Source of the DNA: Convolutriloba macropyga
Taxonomy: Eukaryota
Direction of reading: 5' to 3'
DNA length: 64,000 bases
Assembly: GCF_964194025.1 (NCBI RefSeq)
Contig: NC_134470.1
Coordinates: 77,438,001-77,502,000 of the forward strand
Shown here: positions 5,647 through 58,522 of the stretch, piece after piece
How the letters are laid out: every line of letters begins with the position of its first letter
Position numbering within the stretch: position 1 is the first letter of the stretch
Notes under the pieces: generated by a model
The model's input: only the letters and a program-made list of their open reading frames with translations
Told to the model about the DNA's origin: nothing
Databases searched by the model: none
Program-made: the position numbers and the translations under genes

Positions 5647-5780
5647 ATTGTCCTGACACCATTTTTTGCACTGAGCTACAAAATTTTCTAGGGGAAATAG
5701 AATGCTTCCTGGAGTTTAACTCCCTGCGGCCAAGTAACATCAAACAATTTAATCTGGATTTTTGAAGTTGAAATTTCGAA

Positions 5781-28593: not shown

Positions 28594-29197
28594 ATTGCTA
28601 TTCCTTTGTTCTTCTCTAATTCAACTACATAGTATGTATGTTATAACAGTCATTATAACCCTAAATCTCATGACCTCTTTAATTAATCAAATCCGAAGGT
28701 ATGTTTGTTTAAGTTTACTCGTAAATATAAACTTTTCAGACACCGAGGAGATATTTTGTTTCGTTACCAGCCACATCTTTTCGTTTTTTCATTTGAATAT
28801 GCAGAAAGGAAGTAAATCTCTATTCTGTTCATTGTTCTGATAATTTTGGAGAGGAATTTGTTGAGCACTTCTTTTGCCTTACGTTACTCAATTTAAAACG
28901 TAAGATAAAAGAAGTGCTAAACAAATTCCTCTTCAAAATTATCAGAACAATGAACAGAATAGAGATTTACTTCCTTTTTGCATATTAAATTAAAGAAACG
29001 AAAGGATGTGGCTGGTAACGAAACAAAACGTCTCCTCGGTGTCTGAAATGTTTATATTTACGAGTAACCGTAAACAAACATACCTTCGGATTTGATTAAT
29101 GGATTTGATTTGAGGTCATGAGATTTAAGGAGTTATAATGACTGTTAAAACATACATACTATATAGTTGAATTAGAGAAGAACAAAGGAATAGCAAT
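28594..29197. repeat. ~600-bp imperfect palindrome (two ~300-bp arms, ~11-nt spacer near 28885)
   Basis: ATTGCTATTCCTTTGTTCTTCTCTAATTCAACTA... is the reverse complement of ...TAGTTGAATTAGAGAAGAACAAAGGAATAGCAAT, and pairing continues to the centre. Confidence 0.9.
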
Positions 29198-37563: not shown

Positions 37564-38602
37564 TATAATAAGATATGAAAAGGAATGGAAACAACGGCTT
37601 TGGAGAAATTCAAATGTGTTGCTTCGACAATACGGTTTCAGCGAACACTCCAACCAGCAGGTTTTATGGGAAAAAATGCATCCTTCTGGCAACGTTCCTA
37701 ACAAAACTACCGGAAAAACAACTGTTTAATGTCTCTAAATAAGTGATCACGAAAAAATGTGTAATGAAAAACTCTGCTGTCGGATTTCGGTAATTATGAT
37801 TTTTTATCCAAAAATTGAACGGCCGCTACAGCGGTGAAACTCGTTACCTTTGAAAAGCAGTCAAACTGTTTCTCTCTAATTGAATTTCTGAACCTCCTGA
37901 TTATTTTCTCTGTCAAAAGTATTGAAATAGCTGCTTTTTAAAATAAAATCCGAGTTCGTAAGCTTTTTGGTTTTCATCTATGTCCTATGTCCTTCTTGCT
38001 CTCGTTGTACTTTTGTTTTGTATTCCACGTCAAGTAATTCAGTTTTCATTTTTTGTTCGCTATTTAGAATAAAAATTTACCTGTAACATTGTTTCGGTTT
38101 GGTTTCAGAGATTTCTTTGTTATCTTTTCATCTTCAATAGAGGGAAAAAATTAGGCAATCACCTTTTCATTGTATCAGCGTTACATCATTATTAATAGCT
38201 ATGCGAAAATTTCGTACATATAAATTGACCAGAAATGGTCCATCACGGATCCATGGGGGCACACCTCTGACTATTCTTCATCCGGTTTGAAAAAATAGAG
38301 TTGAATTTTATATGATAAAGCATAACAGAGAAAAATTTTGATCAGATTCCAGGCATCGCTGCTAAATCCCATTGTCTGATTTTTCCAATAGAATATTATG
38401 AGATATGGCAACAAATGCTTTAGAGAGAGCTGTATGTGCGGTTTGGACAAAAATGTTTCCATCAATATTTTTTATGAGAAATAATTAGAGGCTTTTGTTG
38501 TTGCCTCTAATTAAGCTAATGAAGCTCCAGCCTTTTTCTAAGTGTCATAAGACTCAAAATAAAACTTAGAGTTTGCTGTCTGTTTCATTTCAATTAGGCT
38601 TG

Positions 38603-38763
38603 AGTAGTAGTGAAAATGCCTGTATTTTAACGGGGGGACCTGTCCCCCCCCCCCCCGTTAAAATACTGGCATGGCCTTTTTTAGTTATCCTCTTAGAATT
38701 TCCCTATAAGAGCGGAATAAAACTTAGCTGTTTCATTTAGTTCTTCGAACAGTTTCATGCTTT
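38603..38763 (+). repeat. Polinton left TIR
   Basis: AGTAGTAGTGAAAATGCCTGTA...CAGTTTCATGCTTT, inverted at 58365-58522. Confidence 0.95.
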
Positions 38764-39549
38764 CTTGTCTCAGCAAGAATTTAGACAAATCAAATTAAGA
38801 TAAAATTTTTTGATATTAATAAAATTTATAATGTAACGAACCTTGTACATCTGGCACATTGAAGACGGGGTCGAGAAAGTAATCGAAAATAAAATGGAGA
38901 AATAAGGTAATAACTATGAAACAAATGAAATTTCTCTTATTAATTAATATCAATCGTTCAATAAAAAAAAACGAAAACTGGCAAAATTAGAAACATTGAA
39001 GTTAATAACCAATACAAGGTACCAAAAAAAGAAACAAAACAAACCTACATCAAAGAGTTTCAATTTCTAAGCAGTTTTTGAGTTTCTCATTTTCTAATCA
39101 GTTGACTCCAATATTTTGTTGAATGCATTTGAACCACCCAACTGTTGCTAGCAAAAGTTTACCCATTATTCACAAAAACTATTTAACAGTAGCGCAAAAA
39201 TTCCCACAAAACTCAATTCGCCTAAATTTTTTTTATCAGCGTGTGAGCTCTTTAACGAACAAGAAACATTTGATCACGATATTACGCTTAAACTTAGACC
39301 GTACGTTGGTCTTATTGGAATTGACAATTCGTCGTTAGATTATCAATTTAAAAGTTTTAAAGTCCTTCGGTTACATGCAGTTTTGCGTGACGCTGGGTGT
39401 TTTATATACGAAAGATATAACCGAGGATCTGGATACTCTTATATGCTTCCGTGGAAAAGCAGCAACTGTTTTAGCGGTCATTTGTCGGGAGTTTTGTTTT
39501 GTTTATATATAAATGTTTTTCATCTGGCAATTTTTCATTTATTGGAACG

Positions 39550-40176
39550 CTGAGCAGCGAAACAGTTGTGTTAGACGTTGAAGGGTTTCGTCACAGAAAA
39601 GAAAAATTTATTGTTAAAGAACTTGGTGTTTGCACCGAGGACTATCTCGACTGCGTGTCATTTTTACCTTCAACAAGTTATAGTGAGTTAACAACTCAAC
39701 AAAAGCAATCTTTCAGTTGGTTGACTAAAAATTTGCACGGCATTGAGTGGGACCCAGGAAACTATCCCTACATTTATCTCACGCAAATAATTCAAAGCGT
39801 TCGCTTGAGGAATCCGGGTGCAATATTGTATGCTAAGGGAGAGGAAAAAGTAAAATTTTTGTCAGATTTGCTTGAGTGCTCTATTATTGATCTGAATTCA
39901 CTCGCGTGTCCTTCGATATCTGTGAACTAATTTACACAAAACTGTCAAAAACATTCAATGGGCAAAAACATTTTCAACAAACATTTTGCCAAAGAAAAAG
40001 CCATTTTCTATTTCAACTGGTTAACAAATGAGAGAGGAATTGACGAAAGTGGAAGCACCCTTGCCACCGAGTTCAACAGTTTGCGACTTGATTACGGGGG
40101 ACGGAAATCTGAGTCTTTCAATTTCCAAAGAGAAAACCATAAAAACCGGAAACCAGTTTTTACAGAGAAAAGTTAA
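39550..40176 (+). pseudogene. DEDD-fold nuclease-like protein resembling Maelstrom/arenavirus NP C-terminal domain
   Basis: VVLDVEGF...VKEL...LHGI...YAKG...IIDL, one in-frame TAA (39928), then CQKH...KH(F)A in the same frame as track ORF 39958. Start codon uncertain. Confidence 0.65.
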
Positions 40177-40321
40177 ATTGTTGCTGACTGAGGACGAAAT
40201 TCGCTCATTTACTCATTTAGTTTATTATATTGAACCTTTTCTTCAGTGGAGAAAGCAGAATGTCTCAACCCAGAGTCTGTCCTCCGAGACTCTTACTGAT
40301 GTCGAAACACCCGGTTGGTGA
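40028..40321 (+). CDS. Small hypothetical Polinton protein
   Basis: ATG-initiated 97-aa ORF in the gene-dense co-directional block; no motif recognised. Confidence 0.3.
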   Translation: MREELTKVEAPLPPSSTVCDLITGDGNLSLSISKEKTIKTGNQFLQRKVKLLLTEDEIRSFTHLVYYIEPFLQWRKQNVSTQSLSSETLTDVETPGW

Positions 40322-40545
40322 AGAAATTGACAAGAACGATCCTTCACTGCCGAAGGTGATTCAACACTTGGTGAAGGAAGAAAGAGTACACAAAATTGTT
40401 CCTTATGGAGAAAATGAGCGACTCCCGGAGTGCTTTGTGGTTCATATGAAAGACTTTCTAACTGACTTCAATTGATATGAATTGTTTTATATAGAGTGAC
40501 TTCTTCTCAATATATTTTTTTTAAAAAAAATTATTTTGTCCTGAG

Positions 40546-40821
40546 ATGGAGGGAGTAACAGTAGATCAAGCTGACGCTGTTGTAGAAGAAGGTTTTTTTG
40601 AAAAAGAAAGTAGCAGCAAATCTTCATGGAAATTTTGTAATCAAACAACGTTGCCACGGTCAGAAGTTGTATTTTTCGTTCAAATGTTTGTTATTTTACT
40701 GCTGATATCACTTTGTATTGTTAAATTAACCATTTTAAAACCAAATTTTGAAGAAACTTCAGTTTTGATATTAATATTGTCAAGTTTAGTTGGATGCATT
40801 TTACCAAATCCAAGACTATGA
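40546..40821 (+). CDS. Small two-TM membrane protein upstream of the packaging ATPase
   Basis: Two hydrophobic stretches ending LSSLVGCILPNPRL; its stop overlaps the ATPase start (ATGA, 40818-40821). Confidence 0.7.
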   Translation: MEGVTVDQADAVVEEGFFEKESSSKSSWKFCNQTTLPRSEVVFFVQMFVILLLISLCIVKLTILKPNFEETSVLILILSSLVGCILPNPRL

Positions 40822-41545
40822 ATAAGATTATATCTACGCATGATAGAGTCTTTATGGCCGTTGCAGGGCCTTCAGGTTGTGGCAAAACAGAGTTAATTTT
40901 TTAAATGTTGATTGCAAACATATTTTAACCAAAATTTAACAACATCATATTTTTATACAGAGAAATGCAACAAATATACTTCAAAATGGAGAAAACACTT
41001 GGTGTTACGTTTAAAAAGTACGCCAATTTGCCAATTTAGAATTTTTGAATAGCCTTGCAAACTGTCTTCTGATAATAGAGGACTCGTGCGAAGAAATTTA
41101 CAATGACAAAGAATTTGTTAAATTGGCCACTGCAGGGCGTCACAAAAACATTAATGTTATTTATATCAAGCAGAACCTTTATCAACAGAGCAAGTGGTCT
41201 CGTACAATAGACTTGAACACGACACATATCATTTTGTTCAAATCAGCCCGTGATATTCAACATGTCAAATTTGTAGGTAAACAGTTGAACCTTGTTACAT
41301 TTTTAAAACATTGCTATCAATTGGCAACGAAGGAACCATTTGGGCATTTGCTTATCGATCTTGATCCAAAGACTTCTGATTGTTTACGATACTGTTCATA
41401 TATTACTGAGCCAGGTCCTTCAGTTTTCTATCTTCCATCTGATAAAGCAGAAACAACTCCTCTAAACAATGAAAGAGAAAAAATTATCCATACTGAAGCA
41501 AATGGTGCATTTGCAGCCAAAACAATTAAGGAAATATTTGCGTAG
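40818..41545 (+). pseudogene. Genome-packaging ATPase (A32/FtsK-HerA family)
   Basis: Walker A GPSGCGKT (~40867), Walker B LLIIED, arginine motif AGRH, QNLY, IDLNTTHIILFK; two stops and a frameshift caused by a GCCAATT duplication. Confidence 0.93.
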
Positions 41546-41768
41546 TTGTGATAATGATGCTATACTGGTTTTGTGTGAATGTCTTCACAATCTTTTACTG
41601 GGCCAAGTTAGAGTGAAAGTATGAGACTTAGAAAATTACAGACACATATTTGAAGGCGTTCTCAAGAAAAAATCATCAATGGTTAAACGGCAAGCACTTC
41701 TACTAACAAAAACCGGTTTCCAACTGGTTCAAATCATTATTAAATTTTGTTTCATCCATTTGAGTTAA
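41502..41768 (+). pseudogene. Conserved small basic Polinton protein (CEC..N.L.G.V type)
   Basis: Hand translation MVHLQPKQLRKYLRSCDNDAILVLCECLHNLLLGQVRVKV*DLENYRHIF..., one internal stop; partial second copy from 42451. Confidence 0.6.
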
Positions 41769-43343
41769 GCAATCTCAACTTCTGAAGAGTTTATTTTGAT
41801 TCCCAAAAATCAGTTTATGACGGAGCAACCATTTTCCTCGCAAATTCTAAAAGATCCCAGAGTTCAGCATAGAAGTGCTCAATTTTCGTTTTTGAACAGT
41901 ATGCGACCAAATGAAAACACTGACAAAGAGAACCAAAAAATTTTGGATACAAGGGAAACAACTGATTCAACTGAGTTGTCAAAAGTACATGCAGACAAAG
42001 TTCTTCAAAATCTCAACATGCTAGTGCCACCGAAACTTACCAGGACGGAAAAAATGGTTAATCTCATTAAAGAGTCAAAAAACGTTGTTATAGACAAAAA
42101 AAGAGAATTTCATTGTTGGCGGAACAGCGACAGGAATAAATGTTCCCATTTTTCTCTATGACTGGCAGCAACCAACTACAAAAATAAATAATCCAGATTA
42201 TTTCAAGATTCTAGAGGCTTTAAACATAAAAGAGGACTTGGTGATCAACAGTAATGCTAAAATTGAGATCCGGAAAAGAACTCAAAGAGTTACCAAACCA
42301 AAAAGAAAAAGGAAACTTTTGCACCAAAAAAAATCAAGCACAAAGAAAACAGCCAATTACTTACAGAGGAATCCTCAGACGCCAGAAGTGGTTTCGAAAC
42401 CTCAAAGGAAGACAGAACTCAGCAAGAAAAGGACCGGGAGTTAAAATATATTTGCGTAGTTGTGATAATGATGCTATACTGGTTTTGTGTGAATGTCTTC
42501 ACAATTTTTACTGGGCCAAGTTAGAGTGAAAGTATGAGACTTAGAAAATTACAGACACATATTTGAAGGCGTTCTCAAGAAAAAATCATCAATGGATAAA
42601 CGGCAAGCACTTCTACTAACAAAAACCGGTTTCCAACTGGTTCAAATCATTATTAAATTTTGTTTCATCCATTTGAGTTAAGCAATCTCAACTGCTGAAG
42701 AGTTTATTTTGATTCCCAAAAATCAGTTTATGACGGAGCAACCATTTTCCTCACAAATTCTAAAAGATCCCAGAGTTCAGCATAGAGGTGCTCAATTTTC
42801 GTTTTTGAACAGTATGCGACCAAATGAAAACACTGACAAAGAGAACCAAAAAATTTTGGATACAAGGGAAACAACTGATTCAACTGAGTTGTCAAAAGTA
42901 CATGCAGACAAAATTCTTCAAAATCTCAACATGCTAGTGCCACCGAAACTTACCAGGACGGAAAAAATGGTTAATCTCATTAAAGAGTCAAAAAACGTTG
43001 TTATAGACAAAAAAAGAGAATTTCATTGCTGACGGAACAGCGACAGGTATAAATGTTCCCATTTTTCTCTATGATTGGCAGCAACCAACTAAAAAAATAA
43101 ATAATCCAGATTATTTCAAGATTCTAGAGGCTTTAAACATAAAAGAGGACTTGGTGATCAACAGTAATGCTAAAATTCCGATCCGGAAAAGAACTCAAAG
43201 AGTTACCAAACCAAAAAGAAAAAGAATCAAGCACAAAGAAACCAGCCAATTACTTACAGAGGAATCCTCAGACGCCAGAAGTGGTTTCGAAACCTCAAAG
43301 GAAGACAGAACTCAGCAAGAAAAGGACCGGGAGTTAAAATATA
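41537..43343 (+). repeat. Internal tandem duplication (41537-42450 / 42451-43343)
   Basis: Near-identical ~0.9-kb copies with AAATA microhomology at the junction. Confidence 0.95.
41796..42444 (+). pseudogene. Hypothetical Polinton protein upstream of integrase (copy 1; copy 2 at 42709-43340)
   Basis: Track ORFs 41796+42238 and 42709+43151 are near-identical, frameshifted at an A-run. Confidence 0.5.
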
Positions 43344-44229
43344 CGAAAGGTCCCGGAGCATAAGGAGGCATAAAAAATCTCCAAAAAAGCACAAAATTGA
43401 AACCAAGTAAAGTGAAATTGCTCCCAGAGGGCAAAAATGCCCACACAAAGCATAAAAATTATAGAAAAAGATTTCCAACACTGAAAGTTACTGCTTAAAA
43501 CATAAATGAGATTTGGTCGCTAGACTTGGCTTATGTGGATAAATTGGCAAAAGACATCAAAGTTGTAAAATATTTGTTGGTTGCGGTCGACTGTCTCTCA
43601 CCTTATCTACGCGTCGAACCCTTAAATTCAAAGTACGCTACAACAACAGCTGATGCGTTTAAGAATATGATAAAGAACAAGCAACCTAAAAAAGTGTGGG
43701 TAGATGCTGGTACAGAATTTAAGGGCTCCTTCAGCACTCTTTTTCAGAAAAAAGATATTGAAGTTTATAAAACATTCAGCGAAAAAAAGTCAGCATTTGC
43801 GGAAAGAAATATACGCGCAAGAATTTGATATACAAGTATTTAGAGGACAAATGGACATACTCGTATATTAATCAATTGCAGAGCTTTGCACAAACCATTA
43901 ACTCTAAAGTCAACAGAGCAACGGAAATGGCGCCCAATAAAGTTACAAAGAAAGACGTTCCTTACTTGATATCATTAATTTTTAATACATCAGCAAAACT
44001 ATTTCGTCGACAAAATTTTTACGTTGGGGACTTTGTGCGAATATCAAAAGCGGATCTTCCTTTTAGAAAAGGATACAAGGAAACATTTACCAACGAAGTT
44101 TTCGAGATTTACGATATACCTACAACAAATCTTCTAGTCGCAACCCAAGAGCCAGTCAAAGGAAAATTTTACGAGATAGAGTTGGTCAAAGTTAGAGACA
44201 TCAGTAGTGAAATAACAAAACATGAATGA
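43340..44229 (+). pseudogene. Retroviral-like (rve) integrase of Polinton type
   Basis: YTKGPGA*GG...RKRFPTLKV...NEIWSLDLAY (D), VWVDAGTEF (D), KSAFAERNIR (E), VGDFVRISK...FRKGYKETFTNEVF; two stops and one frameshift. True start not located. Confidence 0.93.
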
Positions 44230-45084
44230 ATTCACGGTCCACTTAGTTTCATCAGCCTCAATGATTATTTTCCCTCAAAGCACCTTGTCCTCATTCACAA
44301 ATTATTTCAATGAAGAAATTAATTTGGAGGGGGATTGGCGAGTTGCATTAAATGAAATTATCTTCCCGCCAGAAATAAATCAAGTGAACAAAAGTGATCT
44401 GAAGATATTTTCTTCTGAAGGCCTTAAGTTTAATGAGAAAAGTATTCCATTTGAAGCAGTCTCCAGACCATACGGAGGAGAACGAGCTACCATTGGAATT
44501 GGTTCCTATGAAAACCGTGACCATATTTTGAGATCCTTAAAAACAGCTAGCGGATTGCCTCATTTTGACTATCAATTTAACAAAATCAACGGAGTTTCAA
44601 TCCTCTTTTTTGGTAAAAACGAAGGAATTACTTTTCCGGATAACGAAATTCCAAGTATCCTAGGTTTCGAAGGTATTCATGATGGGCTTGGTTATCATAT
44701 TGGATACAAAATGTTGGACACTTTTGAAAATCTGACCATGGCAGATGACGAAGAAAAAAATTTGCTGGTGATTTTCCTTTTGATTTGTCTGCAGGGAAGC
44801 AACTGACTTTTATTTACGTTAACATAATTGAGTATCAATACGTAGGTGATACTAAAGCTCCGCTTATTCAAGTCATTGATTCAAAACAACGCCTGAAGAA
44901 GGGTAGCCCCTGCGAAATAGAGCCAACACACAGAACTGTTTTCAGCAACTTGGAATACAAAAAGTTACTATCAAAAAATTTTCAGTCAATTGAAATTCAA
45001 TTGCGGACAGAAACCGGACAATTAGTTCCATTCGTTGGAACGGGAAAAGTTATTTTGACATTAAATTTTAAAAAATTCGACTAA
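44222..45084 (+). pseudogene. Minor capsid protein (penton, single jelly-roll)
   Basis: MNEFTVHLVSSAS..FP...SSFTN....I.LEGDWRVAL.EI at the N-terminus and YVNIIEYQYVGDTKAPLI...SIEIQLR...LVPF..GKVILTLNFKK at the C-terminus; one frameshift near 44760. Confidence 0.88.
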
Positions 45085-45470
45085 ATGGAAGCCTACTATC
45101 AACAGCAATTGGTATCACCATAATTTTCAGGACACTATCGCCAACGAAGAACTGGTTTTGGGCTTTAGCGGCAGGTATTGGCAGAGCTGCATTACCGATT
45201 GCAAGAAAGTTTCTTTGGCCTGTAGCCAAAAAGTTTCGACGTGAATTAATTTTTCAAGCAGCTCCTGAGCTGGTAGAGGCTGTCAAAAAGAAAAAACACT
45301 CCCAAACAAGCACTGAAATCAACTGTCTGAAAAATTGTACAAAAACAAATTGGAGGATCATTGGTCAAAAAGAAGAACATCAAGAAAAAACAGACGAAAA
45401 AGCCGTTCAAAGACCATTCGCAGAAAACAACCTCTGTCGAGAAATCGGTCTCAATTCTTCTCTAAAGTTC
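45085..45470 (+). pseudogene. Basic core/membrane-active precursor-like protein between penton and MCP
   Basis: MEAYYQQQ...FSGHYRQRRTGFG, then (frameshift) amphipathic LAAGIGRAALPIARKFLWPVAKK and a Lys-rich tail; position and motif typical of Polintons. End approximate. Confidence 0.6.
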
Positions 45471-45473
45471 AAA

Positions 45474-46804
45474 ATGTTTACTAGTTTACTGCCCGCAGAG
45501 GCAACACACACCACACTTGATTTGTTTGAAAAACAACCTCTGCTAGTTACATTTGATAATGCTTTTACTCAAAAAGTTGGACCTTCCTACTCCCCTGATG
45601 GTCCAATGCTTGAGTTTGAAGTTATGGGTGACAGGAACGATTTCATAGATTTGCAAAAACTTCTCCTTGAAATTAAATGCAAAATCTCCCGAAACAATGA
45701 CGGTGATTTAAGGACATGAACTGATGCTACAAATACAGACTCGCCATACTTAAGCAACAACGCACTGCATTCTTTATTTTCGGAATGCACTGTATCTGCT
45801 AACGGTGTTAAAATTTCCAACACAAACGGAAATTATGCACACAAAGAATTCATTGAAACAGAATTTTTGTCAGGAAAAACTGCAAAAAACACATGGCTAG
45901 TTTGTCAAGGATATTATTACGAGGATGAGCCAGCAAAATTTGATGGCACCGACGGTCGCGCCGAGGATGTTACAGAGAGATAACCCTCGTAGCAAACTCC
46001 AATGAAAATTAATTAATTGGGAAACCATCCAGTGTCATTCTAACGTGTAATAAACACCTGCTCAGTGGTATTACTCTGAGAATTTCATTCAGAAGATCCA
46101 CAAATTCAGGAAGATCTGTTATTTCCTAGTCAAACATCTTTTACAAAGCTAAAATAATTGAGGCTAATCTGTATTTTAGAAGAATGACAGTATCGGATCA
46201 TGTTTTGACGGCAATTGAGAAAACTCTACTAAAAACACCTGCAGAGTATCGCTATACAGAGGTTTCACCAAGCAAATTTTTAGCTACGACTGGTGTTCAA
46301 AGTTGGAGACAACAATATGTCTTCTCAAAGGAACCAATTCGAAGAATGATTGTCGCGATGACAACAAACCGCGCGTACCTTGGCACAAATCGAACAACAT
46401 CTTTTCTTTATCAGAAGTTTGATCTGAGTCAAATTGTTATTTATCGTAACGGACTTCCAATAGTTGGCACGCCCATTTCAACCGCCTCTAATCAAAGGCT
46501 TTATTTTAATACGCTTGAGGCTTTAGATTTTCTTGATAATGGTCGTCCTGGCATATCTCTATCAGATTATCCCCACCATTTTATTATGGCCTTTGTATTA
46601 ACTTCAACACAGGAAGCATCACACGATTTTATTCACCCTGAACTGACAAACTGTTCAATTTCAGTTGAGTTAACGTTTTCGAGAGCATTGACAGATAACA
46701 TTGGAATTTTGTTTTTGGGAGAACGAAGTTCCACATTTTACGTGTCATCTGAGAGAAAAGTCACAAAAAACACACTTATTACATACCCAGTGACTAATGG
46801 TTAA
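45474..46804 (+). pseudogene. Major capsid protein (double jelly-roll)
   Basis: LDLF...LEFEV.G...FIDL, NNALHSLFSEC.V..NG..IS....YAHK.FIET, P.R.IVAM, F.LT...; several stops and frameshifts. Confidence 0.9.
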
Positions 46805-47081
46805 TAATGATAATGTTAAAATTGCCAAATTGATCAACAAATGTGTTCATTTAAAATTTCTGTTTTGCGGAGTATTCCCAGCTGATAGTTTTTCTAAGCT
46901 ATTTGCAGACTCTTTTATTGTAGTTAATGCATCCGATGCTGGAACTATAGGAACTCATTGCCTACTCGTCTGCAAAAAAAACGACAAAATTTATTTTGCT
47001 GATCCATTGGGAAATTCGCTGGAAATCTACTTGAGTTGTGACAAAATAAACTTTTTTGGTGGTATGCAAACGCAAAATTAG
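46797..47081 (+). pseudogene. Adenain-like cysteine protease, truncated copy A
   Basis: FCGVFPAD...IVVNAS....GTH(C)...YFADPLG; C-terminus deleted at 47032. Confidence 0.8.
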
Positions 47082-47182
47082 CAATTTTATTTTTGTCCAA
47101 GTTTGGTTTACAAAAGAAAAGAAGAAAGCGGAATGACTTTTGAAATTGTCGAAAATAATCAGGAGAACGTTCGTAAATTGCG

Positions 47183-47644
47183 TCAGCCATTGTATTTGTC
47201 TATCCTGTAGGCTAAGTTCTTTTTCTGTGCTAGATGTTTCTTGACTTTCGATAGGGGTTGACTCTCGCTTTCAGAATTCGTATCGTTGGTTGAACGAATA
47301 TGTTGTGAAAATCTATCGTTCTCGCCTTCTTTTCTTTTATTCGCCTTAGATGTAACTTTTGGAGGCTCAGTTTGTACTGTTAAAGGAACCTATGCGTCCT
47401 TTGAATCGATCAGATCTCTGATTCTGTGGATATGTTCCGCTAGTCTATCAAATTCTGAAAGAGAAAGGTTTACTTTTTGGGAGAGTTTGTAATCATCATC
47501 ACTTTGGTTGTTCCTTCTGAACTGTTTTATTGCAACATAGGTACCAGAAGTTTCATAGGTTTTAGTTGAGACCCTTACATTTCTTTTTGCAGTTTCTGAG
47601 ATATCAAATTCTATGTCTTTCTCGAGGGTCTCAGATTTTTCCAT
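47183..47644 (-). pseudogene. PC4-like ssDNA-binding protein (copy B at ~50081-50495, partly deleted)
   Basis: RNVRVS...YVAIKQF...KVNLSLSEFDRLAEHIHRI follows the PC4 pattern (R.VSV...IDIRE....KGISL..EQW..L...I..I). The TAG at 47390-47392 is GAG in copy B, extending the frame to 47183. Confidence 0.55.
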
Positions 47645-49035
47645 TTTTATGCACTCAGCTGCTATACTGTTTATTACAAGAGAATAAAATCAAATGAATT
47701 GTTGGAAAAGGAAATAAAGTTGAAGTACTACACTTTATGCAAAACACATTATCACAGAGCTGCTAGACTTTGAGCACTACAAAAATGTGATTGGTCGACA
47801 ATAATTCCTCAGAACCTAAATCGTATTAATATAAAACCATAATTGCGAAGAAACTCTAGTGTATTTGAGCTATAGTCTACAGTACATAGCTTTCAAGAAA
47901 CCCAATTACAATAAAATAAAAGCAAATGTTAGAAATTGAACTTTGGTCCAGGAGTGATAAAACCCAGACCAAATACCATAAAAACTATACGCAATTTAGC
48001 CAACTTATTGAACAGAATACATCTTATCTCTGGGGTCAATGTCAAAACCATAAGATAATAAAATACACTCTGTTAAGTTGTTTGCCAAAAGCAATCGCTT
48101 ATCAGTCTGGGTTTACACCTGTTCTGAATTTAACTTAGTGCAAAACTTTGTATAAACAAATAAAACTTTACGACATACAGTTCTCAACCACAATACGCAA
48201 GTGTTGAAAAGTGAACAAATTCCTTGTTTATATTCCTTGAGCATTTTGTCGTTTTCAACAGTCAAATTTTTGTTGCAGTTCTTGAAATAAAAAACATAAA
48301 ATGTCTCCAGTAGTTATTATTCTGAAAAACGAGAAAAGCTTAGAGAAAAGAACAATAGCTTTTGAAACAAACCGGAAAGACACAATCGTTATTATTGAAC
48401 AAGTATGGACGAAGGATACCTGGGTTACATCAAATCACATGTCACTTCCGGTTGTTATGTTTGTTTTGACCCAGTCATTTCGTTTTATTGGATTTCGTAA
48501 CAAATTACACCAGAGAGTTTATAATTGACACCTTTGTCCTTGAAACAAATGTTCGGAAGATCTTCTACGACTACGACTTGAAAGAAATTCCTTTATACGA
48601 AAATCAAGAAGGATATTGGAGAGATCTCGAAAAGCTCGAGGCTCTCTGGAAAATTCCCAATAGTGATAGCCATGATTGGGAATTTAATGACAGTGAAAAC
48701 TATCTGAATTTCCCACCAGAGACTCCTACTACACCAGTGTTTCTATCAATAGATGATCTCAACTGCTCGGACAGTCAAATGACTCCACCCGCATGGCGAT
48801 GTCTTGCACCCAAAAAACGAAAAAAATGTCAGTATTTCTGACAAAGATTGAGGAAATCGGATCCAGAGAAAAGCTGATAAACAGAATGAAACTATATTGA
48901 AGAGAAAAAACTGCTATAATGTTCAATTTATTCAATCTTACTAACTCTCTAACACAATATTGAAACGAATGAAATTGTACTATCTTTTGAAATTTTTTTT
49001 ATTGTAGCTAACTCTTGAGAACAAACACTACAATG

Positions 49036-49425
49036 AATGTGTTCATTTAAAATCTCTGTTTTGCGGAGTATTCCCAGCTGATAGTTTTCCTAAGCTATTT
49101 GCAGACTCTTTTATTGTAGTTAATGCATCCGATGCTGGAACTATAGGAACTCATTGGCTACTCGTCTGCAAAAAAACGACAAAATTTATTTTGCTGATCC
49201 GTTGGGAAATTCGCTGGAAATCTACTTTGCAGTTTGCAAACAGCTAAACAGTTTCTATGGAGAAGTGATTCAACTGTATACATTGATACCAATTCAAAAA
49301 ACTAACTAAAAACTATGTGGTCTGTTTTGTATTTAAATTGCTCATGTTATTTTTAGCATTAAATACTCTTACACAATGTACATGAATGATGATGACTTAC
49401 TCCGATTTGCAAAGCAAATGCTTTA
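49036..49425 (+). pseudogene. Adenain-like cysteine protease, copy B (5'-truncated, catalytic residues present)
   Basis: GTHW (His), FADPLG (Asp), PIQKTN*KLCGLFC (Gln/Cys); frameshift and stops. Confidence 0.85.
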
Positions 49426-49471
49426 ATTCATTTTTTTAGTTACTCCTCTGTTTTCAGTTAAAGAAACGATC

Positions 49472-50088
49472 TCAATGAAAATTTAGTTTTTTGTAATTTT
49501 GTTCAAATACAAATTTTACAAACAACGTTTCACTGTCAACATTAAGCAAACCGTAACCACTAAGTTTAATATCAATAATTTTTGAAAATTCAGCGTAGTG
49601 TTCATTGTAATATATCTCCACAAAGCGTTGATTAGTCAAAAGTGGTACAAAGTCTGTTTGAGTTTGAACATTTTGATTTACAGCATGGCAAATGCTGGGT
49701 AGTTTCTTCATAGAAAAAAGTTTCTGTGCAGATTCTGTTGTTGTAGACAGTAGTCAACTGCGTCAATAAGTTTTTCCAAAATTGGTCCGTGAACATCGAA
49801 CCCGTCCAAATCCTAAATGAGACATTTAAAGCAGGTAAACAAACACGGTATTGCATAAGCTTTTGAGCTGTCGGTTCCTTCTAAGCTTGATAGTTTTTCA
49901 GATGAAATTAGGACATGGAAATGAACAGAAGAGTTGTGACAAAATAAACTTTTTTGGTGGTATGCAAACGCAAAATTAGCAATTTTATTATTGTCCAAGT
50001 TTAGTATACAAAAGAAAAGAAGAAAGCGGATTGGTTTTTGAAATTGTCGAAAATAATCAGGAGAACGTTCGTACATTGCGTCAGCCAT
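49472..50088 (-). pseudogene. Hypothetical ~200-aa protein with an HUH-like motif
   Basis: Track ORF 49813 (AYHQK...VHFHVLI) reads through one TAG and one frameshift into ORF 49472; truncated copy at 47033-47190. Confidence 0.45.
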
Positions 50089-50777
50089 TGTATTTGTCTA
50101 TATTGTAGGCTAAGTTCTTTTTCTGTGCTAGATGTTTCTTGACTTTCGATAGGGGTTGACTCTCGTTTTCAGAATTCGTATCGTTGGTTGAACGAATATG
50201 TTGTGAAAATCTATCGTTCTCACCTTCTTTTCTTTTAATTGCCTTAGATGTAACTTTTGGAGGCTCAGTTTGGACTGTTAAAGGAACCTCTGCGTCCTTT
50301 GAATCGATGAGATCTCTTTGGGAGAATTTGTAATCATCATCACTTTGGTTGTACCTTCTGAACTGTTTTATTGCAACATAGGTACCAGAAGTTTCATAGG
50401 TTTTAGTTGAGACCCTTACAATTCTTTTTGCAGTTTCTGAGATATCAATAAACTGATCGCAGAATTCTATGTCTTTAGGGTTTCAAATTTTTCCATTTTT
50501 ATGCACTCAGCTGCTATACTGTTTATTACAAGAGAATAAAATCAAATGAATTGTTGGAAAAAGAAATAAAATTGAAGTACTACACTTTATGCAAAACACA
50601 TATTCACAGAGCTGCTAGACTTTGAGCACTATAAAAATGTGATTCGTCGAGAATAATTCCTCAGAACCTAAATCATATTAATATAAAAGCATAATTACCA
50701 AGAAACTCTAGTGTATTTGAGCTATAGTCTACAGTACATAGCTTTCAAGACACCCAATTACAATAAAATAAAAGCAA

Positions 50778-50990
50778 ATGTTAGAAATTGAACTTTGGTC
50801 CAGGAGTGATAAAACCCAGACCAAATACCATAAAAACTATACGCAATTTAGCCAACTTATTGAACAGAATACACCTTATCTCTGGGGTCCATGTCAAAAC
50901 TATAAGATAATAAAATACACTCTGGTAAGTTGTTTGCCAAAAGCAATCGCTTATCAGTCTGGGTTTACACCTGTTCTGAATTTAACTTAG
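50778..50990 (+). CDS. Small hypothetical Polinton ORF (copy A at 47926-48138)
   Basis: ATG ORF present in both duplicate copies; no motif recognised. Confidence 0.3.
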   Translation: MLEIELWSRSDKTQTKYHKNYTQFSQLIEQNTPYLWGPCQNYKIIKYTLVSCLPKAIAYQSGFTPVLNLT

Positions 50991-51152
50991 TGCAAAACTT
51001 TGTATAAACAAATAAAACTTTACAACATACAGTTCTCAACCACAATACGCAAGTGTTGAAAAGTGAACAAATTCCTTGTTTATATTCCTTGAGCATTTTG
51101 TCGTTTTCAACAGTCAAATTTTTGTTGCAGTTCTTGAAATAAGAAACATAAA

Positions 51153-51734
51153 ATGTCTCCAGTAGTTATTGTTCTGAAAAGCGAGAAAAGCCTAGAGAAA
51201 AGAACAATAGTTTACGAAACAAACCGGCAAGAAACAATCGTTATTATTGAACAAGGATGGACAACTTTTACCTGGGTTACACCAAATCACATGTCTCTTC
51301 CGGTTGTTATGTTAGATTTCATCCAGTTATTTCGTTTTGAAAAAGCATTACTAAAAGGCTCCCAGTACACATTGGATTTCGTAACAAATTACACCAGAGA
51401 GTTTATATTTGACACCTCTGTCCTTGAAGCAAATGTTCGGAAGATCTTCTACTACTGCGACTTGAAAGAAATTCCTTTATACGAAATTCAAGAAGGATAT
51501 TGGAGAGATCTCGAAAGTATCGAGGCTCTCTGGAAAACTCCCAATACTGATAGCCCTGATTGTGAATATATTGACAGTGAAAACTATCTGAATTTCCCAC
51601 CAGAGACCTCTACTACACCAGTATTTCGATCAGTAGACGATCTCAACTGCTCGGACAGTCAAGTGACTCCACCCGCATGCCGATGTCTTGCACCCAAAAA
51701 ACGAAAATTTGTCAGTAATTCTGACAAAGATTGA
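51153..51734 (+). CDS. Hypothetical 193-aa Polinton protein (broken copy A at 48301-48841)
   Basis: Intact ATG ORF with S/T-P-rich tail and PKKRK. Confidence 0.55.
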   Translation: MSPVVIVLKSEKSLEKRTIVYETNRQETIVIIEQGWTTFTWVTPNHMSLPVVMLDFIQLFRFEKALLKGSQYTLDFVTNYTREFIFDTSVLEANVRKIFYYCDLKEIPLYEIQEGYWRDLESIEALWKTPNTDSPDCEYIDSENYLNFPPETSTTPVFRSVDDLNCSDSQVTPPACRCLAPKKRKFVSNSDKD

Positions 51735-54658
51735 AGCAATCGGATCCAGAGAAAAACTTGATAAACAGAATGAAACTATACTGAAGAGAAAAAACTGCTA
51801 TAATGTTCAATTTTTTCAATCTTACTAACTCTCTAACACAATATAAAAACGAATGAAATTGTACATTCTTTTGAAATTTTTTATTGTAGCTAACTCTTGA
51901 GAACAAACACTACAATGAATGTTTTGGAAAGCAACAGAGGGATACTACTGGGACTAGTACTTGGTAAATTTTTAGGGGAAACAATAAAAAAAAGAGAAAG
52001 ATCAAAGAAATCGAACAATTTCAACATTTATCATAAAACCATAATATGTGCTCAGTTGAGAAAAACGACTAAAAATTTGCAAAATTCTGAAAATACATAA
52101 CAAAAAATCTTCTCTTGTGTGAGCGGGTGTCTGTAAAACATACCGCTTATAGTGTTGCTCTATTGTTGAAATACATTCAACAATTCATTAAACGAAAAGT
52201 GGACAAAATCAAAAAAATGAAAAAATCTCGATAATTTTGCACAACAAACAAATACAAAATTTCCAAAGTTATTTTCCCTTTTGAGGAAAAATTTTTTGCT
52301 GAAAACACGATTTTTGGAATCAGCGACCTCGAAAACATGGCGTAGCCGCCGTTTTCGACCCGTTTTTAACGTATTCTGTTATAGTTTTTAAAGATTTTTG
52401 GACCCCCAAATTCTCCTCTATAGGCTCCAATATTGTACTCTGAAAGAAATGTAAAAACGAAAAAGAAAGTTTAAAAAGGGCACTTTCCCCTCTTTCAATG
52501 AGGTCCTAAATCTTAAGCATCATCTCTAGTATCTCTAGTATATATTCTAATCAGAGTGTAAGAGAAAGCTCACATTTTTTTCAAGTTAAAAAAGCGAAGC
52601 ATTTTTAATGAAGAATAAAAAAAAACTAAACTAAAGGAAGCGTAAAGGTTTGAATTTAGCGAGTACCGAAGAAGTACTTGCGGTGGATTGGCGCAGACAC
52701 AAGGTGGAAAAGGTTTTCCAGACTTGTGTTCCTCTTTTCTTCAGGGGTAAGGAATATTTTGGTATTTCATAAGATCAACCAGGCGGAAGTGCTCATTTCC
52801 AGCAACGTCGAGCATCATTACCAGCCCCTCAATAGTTTTTAGAAGAATTCCTGTATAATTTTTTTTTGTGGAGGGTGGACTCATTGAATATCACCGTTAT
52901 TTCTTTGATGATATGTTTTCTGTAGGGGAAGATATAGGAGCGCGAGAATGATTTTTGTTCACAATCCAAATTAGAATTTAGAATTGCGATTAGAATTTGA
53001 AAGAGAGTTAATAGACTAAAGAGACTGAAAAGTGTGACTTAAATGCAAAATTTGGAAAATGAGGGTAGGTGATCTTCCGGTTGCCAGCTACTAATCAAAG
53101 TTTACTACCAATATTTAACACATTTAACCAAACCCAAAACAAAAATAAAATTTCCTTACAAAATAGACTTGATACAGAAAACCAGTTGTTACCGCTGGCT
53201 TTGATCCTGTGGAACTTCAATCGAGCGGTAGGCCGCACCTTGGCACCCCAGAGTGTAAAACATAAACTGGCGGTACGTTTGACCAAAACATTGTTTAACA
53301 ATTGAATTAGGAATAAGGAGTGGTGACCATTCAACTCAAATTGATTTTAAGTGGGTTGTATCTGAGCTCCATTCCCTTTGGGTACCGAATCAATCGTAAA
53401 AACTTCGAGTCCTTCGGAAAACTGAATGAACACAGATTATAGCCAAATGTTAAGGTTAAATTCAAAGAACTGATAAGAACAAAAATGTTTATGGAAAAGA
53501 GGGTGTATCTGAAGTCTACGTAAGTTCCTCTCAAGCTAGAACACCGTTAGGATTGGGCGTAGTGGTTTCATTTGATCATTCTTTTCGGTACGAAACACTC
53601 ATTTTCAAAAAATGGTAGCTATCAGAAAGTTGATCAAACTCAAACTTTGCCTACTGTTTGCTTAAAGCTATTTGCGGAAATGAGCTGCCAGTGTGATATC
53701 TGCCAGAAAATTTTTCAAGTTTCCACAGCTTAAGAAGACATCGAAAGGCGATGCACAACATCAAAACCCAGAACAAGCCACTTCAATGCAATGATTGCAA
53801 CTTCGAATCACCGTCGCTAGTCGGAATGATCCAACATACAAAGCAACTGCATGGATCCGAAACCATTCATCATTGTGTTTTTTGCAGCAAAACTTGTTTA
53901 CTGAAATCAGTGTTCGACGATCATATGAATCTAAATCACGGAATGCCCCAGTGGAGAAACAATGGATGCAGTGGTGACCTACCCGTGATGTCAGCAATAA
54001 GTTACGGTCGATTCAATTGTACACGTCAGGCAACGAAAACGACATGCTTGAGTATCTCATGAGTCAAAAACATGAGATTCAACAGATCATCAGAAGTGAG
54101 ACTGCAGCGTGACCGAAGAAAATTCAATTTGCAGCAAAAATAAAAATGTTGAAAGACGTATCTGAACAAGAAGAACCAGAACACTTCAATTTTTTCATAA
54201 ACTCAGAAATAACCATTGTCTACCCTGGGGAGAATCTGGCAGATGAAATGTTCTGGAATAAAGTTGAACAAATAATAAACAGTATCTCGAAAGTAACAAC
54301 AAATGGAAGCGGATTGGCGTTTCGAAAAGCTTCTGTAATCCGAAATAAAAATTGTCAAGGTTCTCCCCAATTCGTGCTGGCTCCTACATTGCTTTGCCAG
54401 TGAAGTACCAATCAGAGCAATCGCTACTGAACATCAGGAACTATCAAGATCCGATATGCTTTCTGTTTTGCTCCACTTATTCTATGGACCCCCACTCGTG
54501 AACGAAGACACCACTTGGCGAACAAAGCGAAGTTTTTCTCTGTACGGACCAAAAAACCCAAAGGCTCATCAACCGTATGGTAATCACCAGATGCTTATGC
54601 CTGTGGACGAAATTGGTATATTCGAGAACGAAAACGATGTCCAAATAAACGTTTTTCG

Positions 54659-54761
54659 TTGAGTCAAGCTTTAGATATATTTTATGGTTTAGCAACTTTA
54701 GTAACAATTTCAACTCATTCTTCTACGATCCAAAAAACAGCAATATTTTTCTTTGTTTCAG
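54659..54761 (+). other. Putative spliceosomal intron 1 in pPolB (donor degraded to TTGAGT)
   Basis: Acceptor TTTTCTTTGTTTCAG; removal joins INVFR to LNEKEELIPY...VVDLLLL in frame. Confidence 0.55.
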
Positions 54762-57328
54762 ACTTAACGAGAAGGAAGAACTCATACCGTATTGAGTTCC
54801 CAAGAAGTAGGATCAAGAATTTGTGGTTGACCTTCTGCTACTAAGCGACGGTAAAATTTTCCACTACGCCCTCATCACTGAGTTGGTAAATTTAGTACAG
54901 AAAGTTCGTGGTAGAAAACTTCATTCACGTTCTCAAAATTGCCGAAATTGTTTTCATGTAAATAGCAACATTGAAGTAATGGAAAGACAAAAAAACTTTG
55001 TAGCAGCTATGAAGCGGTCCACATTAAAATGCCGAAAGAGAATGCGTGCATTCTAAAATTCAAAAAGTTTCAAGCCAGGTCCTTTGCCCTGATTGTGTTA
55101 CATTTCGACCTAGAGTCTCATCTACTAAATGTGCACACAGCATTGAATAACCCAAAAATAAGTTCAAGTAACAACATTGAAAAACATGTTCCGTCGGGCT
55201 TTTGTATAACAGTCCACACAAAACAGCTAATGTTCAAATTGGTACGCTCACCAAACTGTATGTCCGATTTTATAAAAACAATAGAAAGTCTAGCATATGA
55301 TATTCACAACAGAAAACAACAACATAAAATCTTCACTGGTCAGCTCGGTCAAACCACAAGTGAAGCTAAAGCCTGCTGGACCTGTGGTTTGGTTTTCAAT
55401 GCACAAGATATCAAAGTGTTAGATCATTGCCACTACTCGGGTGAGTTCCTCGGTTGGGCGCACAAAACATGCAACTTGAAGCGTAGAAGTCTAAATTTCA
55501 ACCCCGTGGTTGCCCACAACCTATCAAACTATGACTTGCATCATATATGTCAAGCTATTCAATATTGCAGCTCTAATAGTAAACTGCAAGTTATCCCTCA
55601 AACAGATGAAAAGTATATATGTCTGATAACCAGAGTAAAAGTTGGCGAGTACAAAAACAAAAAAGGAGAAGTGATTGAATTTTTCAAAAATATGCGCTTT
55701 CTCGACTCTTTCCGATTCATGGGACTGTCACTTGAAAAATTGGTGTCTTTTTGCCTACAGAGGGATTTAAATTTTTTGATAACCATTTCGAAGAGAAATT
55801 TGCAAAAAAGCAAATAAAGTTGTTGCATCAAAAAGGTTTGTACTCTTACAGTTACTTTGACAATTTTGAAAGGTTCAGTGAAAAACGTTTGCCTCCCCTA
55901 AACAAGTGGAAAAACACATTAGCTGGTTGTGAAGTTTCTATAACACTGGAAAACCTGGCGCATGCTAAACAAGTTTTCCGAACGTTTAAATGCAAAACAT
56001 TGAGCGATTATCACGATTTGTATCTGACAACTGACACCCTACTGCTGGCTTGTGTGTTTGAAAAATTTCGCAAAGTGTGCTATGAAACTTATGGCCTTGA
56101 TTGCGCTCAGTATTTCTCTGCAGCAAACTTAGCGGGTGATGCATATCTCAAAACATGTATTATTAACGTTAGGCTGCTTGAAGAGAGAGCATCTTGATAT
56201 GGCAGGAAGTCTTATGCGCGGTGTTATGTCCTCAGTTTACTCGAGTAGACTTTTCAAAGCTAACAACAAATAATTGCCGGATTTTGATAAAACAATTGAG
56301 AGTTCCTTCGGTTTCACAATCGACGCAAATAATCTCTATGGGGGCATAATGCAAACCTGTTGTCTACCAATTGGTGATTTTGAGCTCGTTGAGATGTCAC
56401 TGAGTGAGCTGTTGCAAACCCCAGAAGACTCACCATACGGCTTCATCGTGGATGTGGACCTGGAATATCCCCCGAAATTGCACGACATTCAGAGTGACTA
56501 TCCACTTGCTCCAACCAGAGAGTCTGTCCAAGTTATCTGGTTGAGTCAATACCAGGAGAATCTGAGAGAGAAAATGAATGTAAGGGTTAGTACGAAGAGC
56601 AAAAAACTGCTCCAAACTATGTTTGTCAAGCCCCACTATTTAACACTTTACACTATTTAACTTTACAGCTGTATTCGGAGCTTGGTCTGAAAGTGACTAA
56701 AGTTCACCGAGTGCTCAGATTCTTGCAAGGATTTTGGTTAGCTCCCCATATAGAGTTGAATAGCAGAAAGAAAGAGCAGGCTGCAAACAAATTTGACGAA
56801 AATTTCTTCGAATTAATGATAAATAGTGTGTACGGGAAAATGTGTGAAAATCCGAGAAAACTTACCAACGTCATGCTAGTAAGATCCAAGAAAGAGCTGC
56901 TAGAACAAAGCGCAAAGTTTAACTTTAAGTCGTTCAAAGTTTTTAACCCGAACCTGCAGTAACTCTTCGTCGCACTGAGTTCACTTGATTAAAGCCGTTG
57001 ATCATTGGAGCCACAATACTGGATCTCTCCAAGATGTTTATGTTCAGGTTTCATTATAAAATAATGAAAGAAAACTTTGCTTGCAAACTTTAGTACAGTG
57101 ATACAGACTCCCTGACGTATGCAATTATGACAGGAGACCTCTACGGTGACCTTAAAAACCATCCCATTCTTTATAAAGAATTCGATTTTTCGAACTACCC
57201 AAAGGAAGCAAGCCTCTACAACCCGAGCAATAAAAAGAAAGTCCTCAAAATCAAAGATGAACTGGCGGGATCAGTAATGACAGAATTTGTTGGAATCAAA
57301 TCCAAGATGTACTCCATAATCACAGCAG

Positions 57329-57510
57329 GTATGTTTTTCCAATTGTTTTACTTATCCAAAAAAACTTTGCAATTATGGTCTTTAAAATTCTGAGACTTCT
57401 AGATATGTTTAATCAAAGCAAACAACTCAAAATTTTTTAATATAAAACCAAAAGGCTAACAAAATTCCGGTAACGAAAAACGAGGAAAAAGATTTGTTTT
57501 TCTCATTTAG
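57329..57510 (+). other. Putative spliceosomal intron 2 in pPolB
   Basis: CAG|GTATGT donor, TTTTTCTCATTTAG acceptor; removal yields KSKMYSIITADTQKKSMKGI. Confidence 0.8.
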
Positions 57511-57716
57511 ATACCCAGAAAAAGAGCATGAAGGGCATATCCCTCTCCACACAACGCTTATTCAATCACCAGTCTTTCAAAAAAGTCCTTGAGCAACAAT
57601 TTTTACAGTACGCACGATCAAAGTTTATTGTCTGCCTACGACGATAAACGCTTTATTTTCGACGACGGTATAACAAGCTACCTTTTGGCCACTAATTGTA
57701 GACGAAGTTTGCATGC

Positions 57717-58064
57717 GTGAATAACTGGGACGTAAATATGGACAACACCAACAATTCTGAAGGGGCAGAAACTACTCTTGGTAACGGCGACGAACGCCCG
57801 GAAATACAAAGTTTGAATTCAAGCACGCTGGGTGATAGGTCAGACAACAGTTTCAAGGAGACAGATTGGGGTTTCCTTCAACGCACGTCCAATGAAAGTG
57901 AGTTGGAAGTACATAGCTGTGAAGTGAGCGAGGAACCGCGAACACCCAGTCATAACGAATTCATTTTATTTGAAGCTGAAGAGAGCGACGAGGAAACCCC
58001 AGTTGTTCCTCACAAGCGTGCACGGCGTTTAATTTTATATGAATCTAGTTTTGACTCCAATTAA
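57717..58064 (+). CDS. Acidic low-complexity ORF after pPolB (separate gene or polymerase tail)
   Basis: 115-codon open frame rich in E/S/D, ending KRARRLIL. Confidence 0.35.
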   Translation: MNNWDVNMDNTNNSEGAETTLGNGDERPEIQSLNSSTLGDRSDNSFKETDWGFLQRTSNESELEVHSCEVSEEPRTPSHNEFILFEAEESDEETPVVPHKRARRLILYESSFDSN

Positions 58065-58364
58065 AAACAATCAAAAACTTGCTTTAAACTTTTTTGCATG
58101 TTGGTAATTTAGTGAACAGAACTGGTAAAATTTATGGAAGAAAAATTTTGTTTGTGTGCTGATAATGTGCCGGGCAAAATTAGCCCGTATTTTCTTTATT
58201 CCCAACGGTTATTGATTAGAAGCAAAAGTTTGGACTAACGCCTTGAAGCTAATTAAATTCACTTGTACTTTTATCTCTGATAAGCTAAGAAAAGAATGCA
58301 GAAATTGTTAATACAAACACCAACCGACTTTCATGGTTAGAAAGGGGAAAACAAAATTCAACTC

Positions 58365-58522
58365 AAAGCATGAAACTGTTCGAAGAATTAAATGAAACAG
58401 CTAAGTTTTATTCCACTCTATGTTAGGGAAATTCTAAGAGGATACCTAAAAAAGGCCATGCCGGTATTTTAACGGGGGGACAGGTCCCCCCCCGTTAGAA
58501 TACAGGCATTTTCACTACTACT
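58365..58522 (-). repeat. Polinton right TIR
   Basis: AAAGCATGAAACTG...GCATTTTCACTACTACT, inverted match to the left TIR with a few mismatches and indels. Confidence 0.95.

Follow-up and report, generated by a model that had tools for sequence, protein, structure and literature searches.

A decayed MAEL-like gene in a Polinton of Convolutriloba macropyga and the viral family to which it very probably belongs

What does a protein that recalls both the piRNA factor Maelstrom and the exonuclease of arenavirus nucleoproteins (NP) do in a Polinton? The question is raised by one open reading frame (ORF) in the window, the 64,000-nucleotide stretch of Convolutriloba macropyga DNA analysed here, which a preliminary description read as a Polinton-encoded nuclease of this kind and as a candidate counter-defence against RNA silencing. 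The ways in which germline DNA viruses and transposons escape piRNA silencing are still poorly understood. The ORF is very probably a decayed copy of a conserved MAEL-like adintovirus gene, and it lies about 0.95 kb inside a decayed Polinton/Maverick element with terminal inverted repeats. The features of the element and of the gene are as follows (residue 1 is the codon at 39550).

38603..58522, Polinton/Maverick (adintovirus-like) element, decayed, 19,920 bp; inverted repeats 38603-38763 and 58365-58522, 89% identity
38603..38763, left terminal inverted repeat, starting AGTAGTAG
58284..58522, right terminal inverted repeat
39152..39553, + strand, upstream ORF, conserved, no assigned function; its stop overlaps the start of the MAEL-like gene
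39547..40176, + strand, MAEL-like DEDDh-fold gene (predicted fold), broken copy; folded domain about residues 1-163
39574..39582, + strand, D-x-E, putative first two DEDDh positions, D9 (39574) and E11 (39580), on model strand 5-13
39619..39621, + strand, E24, first predicted zinc ligand, on the model's second strand (K23-E24 is 39616-39621)
39736, + strand, H63
39835..39849, + strand, K-G-x-E-K motif, K96-G97-x-E99-K100
39907, + strand, C120
39943..39999, + strand, C-x2-H ... H-(C)-A-x2-K, with predicted zinc ligands 132, 135 and 146: C132 (39943), H135 (39952), H145 (39982), F146 (39985), K150 (39997)
41015..41545, + strand, packaging ATPase fragment, by synteny with the integrase and capsid genes, no Pfam match of its own; presumed in part from motifs
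43499..44229, + strand, retroviral-type integrase, frameshifted; Pfam rve E 1.1e-6, under the curated cut-off
44216..47081, + strand, genes for minor and major capsid proteins and for the protease, each fragmented; by gene order and tblastn, Pfam silent
54975..57393, + strand, B-family DNA polymerase, fragmented, by putative motifs A, B and C; pieces unmatched by Pfam

The Polinton context proposed for the ORF was borne out by the terminal inverted repeats, by the rve match and by the gene order (upstream ORF, MAEL-like gene, ATPase, integrase, capsid genes, protease), which is kept in all four of the divergent copies that were fetched with 10 kb. The tblastn searches behind the capsid and protease names were made to metagenome loci with rve and Peptidase_C5 neighbours. 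Other copies of the element match the right repeat across about 240 bp, so part of the left arm has been lost; the flanking 6-mers (38597-38602 and 58523-58528), compared as a 6-bp target duplication, agree at five of six bases. The upstream ORF has no Pfam match, is 65% identical in a second subfamily of genome copies, and also accompanies the MAEL-like gene in three distant loci (L076, L079 and L086) at 35-37% identity. Another conserved ORF (40025-40321, + strand, other frame) overlaps the C-terminal tail of the MAEL-like gene and is 65-68% identical in the second subfamily. The element further contains near-identical ORF pairs at 41769/42682, 42094/43007, 47390/50081 (- strand) and 48470/51138, and internal duplications span 41769-43363 and 46794-51734. 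Elsewhere in the window are a long 15-bp tandem array (1960-5700, >230 units), whose GC skew is strong and which is open for 1,200 aa on either strand, and a palindrome at 28682-29100 (204-bp arms, 93% complementary; related second copy at 24322-24632) that looks like a miniature inverted-repeat element.

Every motif that the preliminary description listed was found where it had been placed, in a single + frame (DVEG 39574, KEL 39616, HGI 39736, AKG 39832, IIDL 39883, CQKH 39943 and H-F-A 39982), and both of its later DEDD-equivalent positions (39847 and 39997) do encode lysine. From the order of strands and helices in the model, K100 would stand at the third acid position of a DEDD site, the place of D466 in Lassa NP, and the spacing relative to published Maelstrom and NP sites (PMC4408791 and PMC3429428) suggests that His145 occupies the DEDDh general-base position and K150 the fourth acid position. 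The window copy itself is dead, because it has no start codon at 39547-39549 (present in 47 of the 52 genome copies examined), carries an in-frame TAA at 39928-39930 (translated as X), and has lost its last zinc ligand, Phe replacing Cys at position 146 (39985) in this copy alone among the 52. Read on in frame, the ORF ends with a stop codon at 40174-40176, and from 40025 onward it shares its sequence with the next ORF.

Is the gene as dead as this copy? The host genome contains at least 150 copies (150 of 3,566 candidates were scored and all matched), at 64-100% identity, and 10 of the best 12 have no stop. Of the 52 examined copies, 35 have a start codon, are free of stops and keep every one of the 13 motif residues, a share biased upward because the 52 were picked mostly from stop-free ones. 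Changes common to at least three of 40 near copies have a pN/pS of 0.14 whereas private changes have 0.80 (both over residues 1-158, ahead of the overlap with the next ORF), the pattern expected if an active element keeps the gene and its copies decay after insertion; between the two genome subfamilies dN is 0.23 with dS saturated (ratio about 0.09). The MAEL-like gene is under purifying selection. A host gene is ruled out, as the copies sit in Polintons. Incomplete copies of the element that contain the gene are arranged in tandem in the host genome at C3:343805-353594, C7:58066435-58077304 and C10:46749325-46753375, with spacings of about 4.6, 3.4 and 1.8 kb.

Beyond this genome, 110 proteins match the ORF at E<=1e-3 in a sequence search, and a profile of 12 relatives matches 2,502 cluster representatives (50% identity) at the same threshold among 1.84 billion. 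A chance order of motifs is ruled out by the 110 proteins, the 150 genome matches and the 2,502 profile matches, and the expectation that similar ORFs exist elsewhere held, in these clusters, in metagenome Polinton loci and in structure matches among viruses. Ten cluster look-ups returned 'hypothetical protein' for three and no name for the others, and scans of IMG/VR found no relative. In metagenomes a motif scan picked out 47 loci, all 47 of which hold family members; a Polinton hallmark gene is present at 17 of them, 13 recognised by tblastn with window genes and four more by Pfam PF21738, which was run on 55 of 93 long ORFs. Among loci of at least 2.5 kb, 11 of 17 have a hallmark gene, and of the six without one three hold only a fragment. 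In eight of the 47 loci the MAEL-like gene directly follows the major capsid gene.

Residue conservation was counted in 91 relatives (the best 150 of the 2,502, of which 87 cover the domain, plus four near relatives). The predicted zinc ligands are kept in most of them (E24 in 90, C132 in 90, H135 in 69 and Cys146 in 89), in agreement with the E-C-H-C site to be looked for in siblings and with the remark that the TTT codon in the H-F-A of the window is one change from Cys. At the first pocket positions, D9 is found in 86 and E11 in 66 (Q in 23); the lysine motif is similarly conserved (K96 88, G97 88, E99 73, K100 87), as are H63 (87), C120 (88), H145 (60) and K150 (68, with N in 20). No relative has an acid at position 100 or 150, which fits the incomplete acidic tetrad seen earlier, and 60 of the 91 have D-E-K-K at the four putative pocket positions. 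In a quick tree the relatives fall into an E/K branch (n=66, His145 in 57) and a Q/N branch (n=23, His145 in one), with an SH-aLRT of 94; the zinc His is retained in just 45 of the 66 E/K members. A search for longer fused forms of 532-2000 aa found none, which is weak evidence. Among individual proteins, P0253 (1,521 aa) has seven stretches that match the family profile and is apparently a tandem multi-domain form, the fold is matched as well by A0A0K1Y8R3, a viral protein of 1,022 aa, and P0277 and P0293, both of the Q/N branch, carry a C-terminal BIR (inhibitor of apoptosis) domain fused to the family domain.

The existence of a MAEL-like Polinton gene is very likely already known, because MAEL is already drawn on adintovirus maps. 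Supplementary Fig. S2 of Starrett et al. 2021 (PMC8502044) carries the label four times, apparently, by its machine-read layout, on the Bos-associated insect, the Ladona and two Spodoptera maps; the word 'mael' is absent from the main text of that paper. On one map MAEL comes right after Penton and Hexon, a Polinton accessory gene in the same place as in the eight metagenome loci, whereas the window gene lies close to the left repeat and ahead of the ATPase. 'Mael-associated' polintons also appear in a preprint (10.1101/2025.02.07.637071), according to which just one of two polinton groups of insects is linked to mael, and the label is found in a further preprint as well (10.64898/2026.07.28.741253). 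In the passages concerned the name is a label alone, with no pocket analysis or function beside it. Given the labels, the gene order and a structure match (a Drosophila-associated adintovirus 2 protein, which the model matches at E 2.9e-10), the published MAEL-labelled proteins are very probably members of this family, and the preliminary description overstated the novelty of the gene. A search of the literature on maelstrom/mael together with adintovirus, polinton, maverick and bracovirus, outside subscription papers and bioRxiv supplements, found no functional study of a viral MAEL gene among the titles and abstract openings listed. The present analysis adds how large the family is, the selection acting on it, the lysine pocket and the split into two branches, and the link to ichnoviruses.

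The fold and the E-C-H-C zinc site are predicted, from AlphaFold models of the window protein (pLDDT 85) and of the intact natural relative P0089 (pLDDT 91.5). Both models have a DEDDh fold, and all their top structural matches in VIA-align and Foldseek are DEDDh proteins. With the window model, the VIA-align Z scores are 11.9 for DinG exonuclease, 11.4 for a TREX1-like protein, 11.1 for DnaQ, 10.7 for Bombyx Maelstrom (9nhc, with the longest alignment, 155 residues), 10.6 for Drosophila MAEL, 10.1 for LCMV NP and 9.8 for Lassa NP. With P0089 they are 12.8 for DinG (rmsd 4.2, 154 aligned), 12.0 for 3'hExo, 11.7 for 9nhc (4.2, 160), 11.4 for 4ybg (3.7, 157), 10.2 for Lassa NP (3.5, 142) and 10.0 for 5af0 (4.1, 158). 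MAEL chains score Z 9-11.7 over the two models, and with P0089 three of them align 157-160 residues whereas the other rows with Z of at least 9 align no more than 154. By Foldseek E-value DnaQ, TREX1-like, REXO2 and RNase T lead; with P0089, 9nhc_F has rank 11 yet the top TM-score (0.59) and the lowest rmsd (3.9) among the matches listed, and with the window model the NP rows have the lowest rmsd and MAEL is absent, again among the matches listed. Because Z-score and E-value disagree with TM-score and alignment length, the fold by itself leaves the choice between MAEL and a generic DEDDh protein undecided.

The structure search proposed as a check on the preliminary description supported the DEDDh fold, but neither MAEL nor NP stood out in it when matches were ranked by Z-score or E-value. 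The generic DnaQ-type DNase that had been named as the contrary outcome is ahead on these same measures (DinG and DnaQ), and 9nhc_F is ahead by TM-score for P0089. In ESM features the nearest neighbours are unnamed, mostly arthropod clusters (0.91-0.95), followed among named families by Maelstrom, PF13017 (0.88, 165-168 shared features), and arenavirus NP is further off (0.77, 97 features); the two queries count as one source, and 0.88, being below 0.9, is a lead only. Of the double likeness to Maelstrom and arenavirus NP, it is the Maelstrom side that stood up better. Pfam Maelstrom (PF13017) matched none of 92 members at E<=0.1, Pfam runs on single proteins and on the 92 members assigned none of them to a MAEL, arenavirus or exonuclease family, and PDB sequence searches with the protein and two profiles gave nothing below E 0.2. 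An HMG box was likewise searched for with no match, and relatives of 209 aa begin at the nuclease fold. Among predicted viral structures the best matches (E 1e-12 to 3e-6) are the unnamed Q4FEW2, ORFs of Glypta and Apophua ichnoviruses and the Drosophila-associated adintovirus 2 protein.

How, then, does the family compare with the proteins it resembles? Published descriptions place the zinc ligands of Bombyx MAEL at E137 (on strand 2), C290, H293 and C302, and its pocket at D122, N124 and R306, with R306 bonded to D122, in a protein that is nuclease-inactive and binds ssRNA (PMC4408791). The step from D9 to E24 is +15, like that from D122 to E137, C132-x2-H135 matches and, with the last Cys position, precedes the last helix as in a MAEL domain, and K150 stands four past position 146 as R306 does past C302. 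The metazoan MAEL domain (PF13017; PDB 4YBG, 5AF0, 9NHC) shares with the viral family the DEDDh fold, the E-C-H-C spacing, the first Asp, a basic residue four past the last Cys and an incomplete acidic tetrad. Unlike it, the viral proteins have no HMG box, a domain of about 165 residues and no Pfam match, are 10-16% identical to it in structural alignments, retain E11 and His145, and add the conserved K96, K100 and C120-P121. The Lassa NP active site is given as D389, E391, D466, D533 and H528 (PMC3429428), and the step from H145 to K150 is +5, like that from H528 to D533 when compared by residue numbers. Arenavirus NP exonuclease likewise has a DEDDh fold (Z 9.8-10.2), a D-x-E start and a zinc motif of the same kind, and its identity to P0089 is the highest among the VIA-align rows (18-19%); it differs in having all four acids, where the family has Lys at two, in digesting dsRNA, and in an N-terminal nucleocapsid domain which the family does not have (its lower ESM similarity was given above). 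MAEL and the arenaviral exonuclease are reported to have the zinc motif in common and to form sister branches in a structure tree (PMC7968707, PMC2628886). Since the spacing matches both Bombyx MAEL and Lassa NP, the family appears to combine their zinc signature (predicted) with a D-E-K-K-H pocket that neither has as described in those sources. The protist MAEL of Entamoeba, EHI_192630, has a MAEL domain with E-C-H-C as in the family, but unlike the viral proteins it retains DEDD, and it is active as an exoribonuclease (PMC4408791). The banchine ichnovirus ORFs GfV-D6-ORF1, GfV-B38-ORF1 and AsIV-cont00151/163/150-ORF1 match by predicted structure at E 9e-12 to 3e-3 and 20-30% identity; they are shorter (106-166 aa) and belong to wasp-domesticated, non-replicating viruses.

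Judged from residues and spacing, the protein is most probably no canonical two-metal exonuclease. With a late acid in none of the 91 relatives, and hence no complete D-E-D-D-H site, exonuclease chemistry of the arenavirus type is unlikely, and the NP-like RNase of the preliminary description is disfavoured. RNA is the somewhat more probable choice of ligand, small-RNA silencing is a tentative choice of target, and the reading I prefer, just as tentatively, is that of a pseudo-nuclease that binds RNA and would help the virus by disturbing small-RNA (piRNA/siRNA) silencing in the host. A Maelstrom-type, zinc-stabilised DEDDh-fold protein would bind RNA without normal two-metal cutting; two lysines would occupy the places of metal-binding acids, pair with D9 and E11 and grip RNA phosphates, a pairing that would resemble R306-D122 of the inactive, RNA-binding Bombyx Maelstrom. 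Most speculatively, the protein might coat viral transcripts or piRNA-target duplexes and so become a rival of the host's own Maelstrom in target-engaged PIWI complexes. Genes for proteins of AGO and PIWI type, presumably assigned correctly to these clades by their motifs, are present in the host, and its PIWI genes are split in exons. A review places Maelstrom, together with Gtsf1, in the target-engaged Piwi complex (PMC13269885). Packaged polydnavirus genomes are described as having no replication genes and as acting on the parasitised host (PMC4553618), and relatives in non-replicating ichnovirus genomes hint at a host-directed role.

Several observations weigh against parts of this pseudo-nuclease reading, and the other explanations draw on them. 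Against a PIWI decoy are the absence of an HMG box from the family (in Bombyx pull-downs it is the HMG box, not the MAEL domain, that is needed for Siwi binding; PMC8881725), the indecisive fold searches, and the failure to find a host Maelstrom: although PIWI-type genes are present, a six-frame PF13017 scan of the host genome, from which introns may hide the gene, returned none. The scan returned none of the MAEL-like copies either, and its sole match (E 0.9) was to a LINE reverse transcriptase and was rejected as a chance match. Pure binding is countered by the general-base His (57 of 66), which with D and E in the main subfamily fits catalysis equally. An active nuclease of changed chemistry, in which D9, E11 and His145 coordinate at most one metal, K96, K100 and K150 stabilise the phosphate in place of the missing metal, and the targets of cutting are small RNAs, dsRNA or the short nucleotides that serve as immune signals, would account for the D-E-K-K pocket of 60 of the 91 relatives and for the presence of that His in 57 of 66 E/K against one of 23 Q/N members, as if a catalytic set were kept or lost together; MAEL domains have moreover been described with endonuclease activity in vitro (PMC8881725). 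This is nonetheless rather unlikely, as two of the four metal-binding acids are missing in all 91, Bombyx MAEL is inactive (PMC4408791), and the Q/N loss lies on one side of a single branch (SH-aLRT 94, quick tree) and so represents one event, not repeated covariation.

A piRNA target is also made less obvious by the ichnovirus genes, which would act in somatic cells of the caterpillar. These relatives in packaged genomes, the two BIR anti-apoptosis fusions with the host-defence context they suggest, and the use by arenavirus NP of the same fold against innate sensing (PMC7968707) would suit a general somatic shield against innate nucleic-acid sensing, which in infected cells would cap the ends of viral RNA or DNA, or conceal them from sensors and Dicer, independently of PIWI and the germline; yet Maelstrom, the closest of the named families, acts in the piRNA pathway, the fusions number 2 of 92 and the binding is putative, and I consider such a shield unlikely. 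Still less probable is a housekeeping role in which the protein would bind or trim the ends of viral DNA in replication, integration or packaging. DNA-acting DEDDh proteins (DinG exonuclease, TREX1-like, DnaQ, ExoX) do come first or tie in the fold searches, and the gene does directly follow the major capsid gene in the metagenome loci counted above, but the link of mael to only one of two insect polinton groups (10.1101/2025.02.07.637071) sets it apart from the core genes, relatives are also present on ichnovirus circles that do not replicate, and the zinc motif is a trait of MAEL and NP (PMC7968707).

The boldest reading, to which I give a low probability, is that of a Polinton mimic of a core piRNA effector, a Maelstrom-fold protein with a remodelled D-E-K-K-H pocket that would displace host Maelstrom from target-engaged PIWI or destroy the guide-target duplex, giving escape from germline silencing; its large family would comprise a pocket-retaining and a pocket-degenerate branch, and would have been re-recruited by parasitoid wasps into ichnoviruses. 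Because Maelstrom is known to belong, with Gtsf1, to the target-engaged Piwi complex, a small viral look-alike that has no HMG box and is under purifying selection would offer a direct test of the decoy model, and the lysine-substituted pocket could help to decide if MAEL-type domains need DEDD for RNA cleavage.
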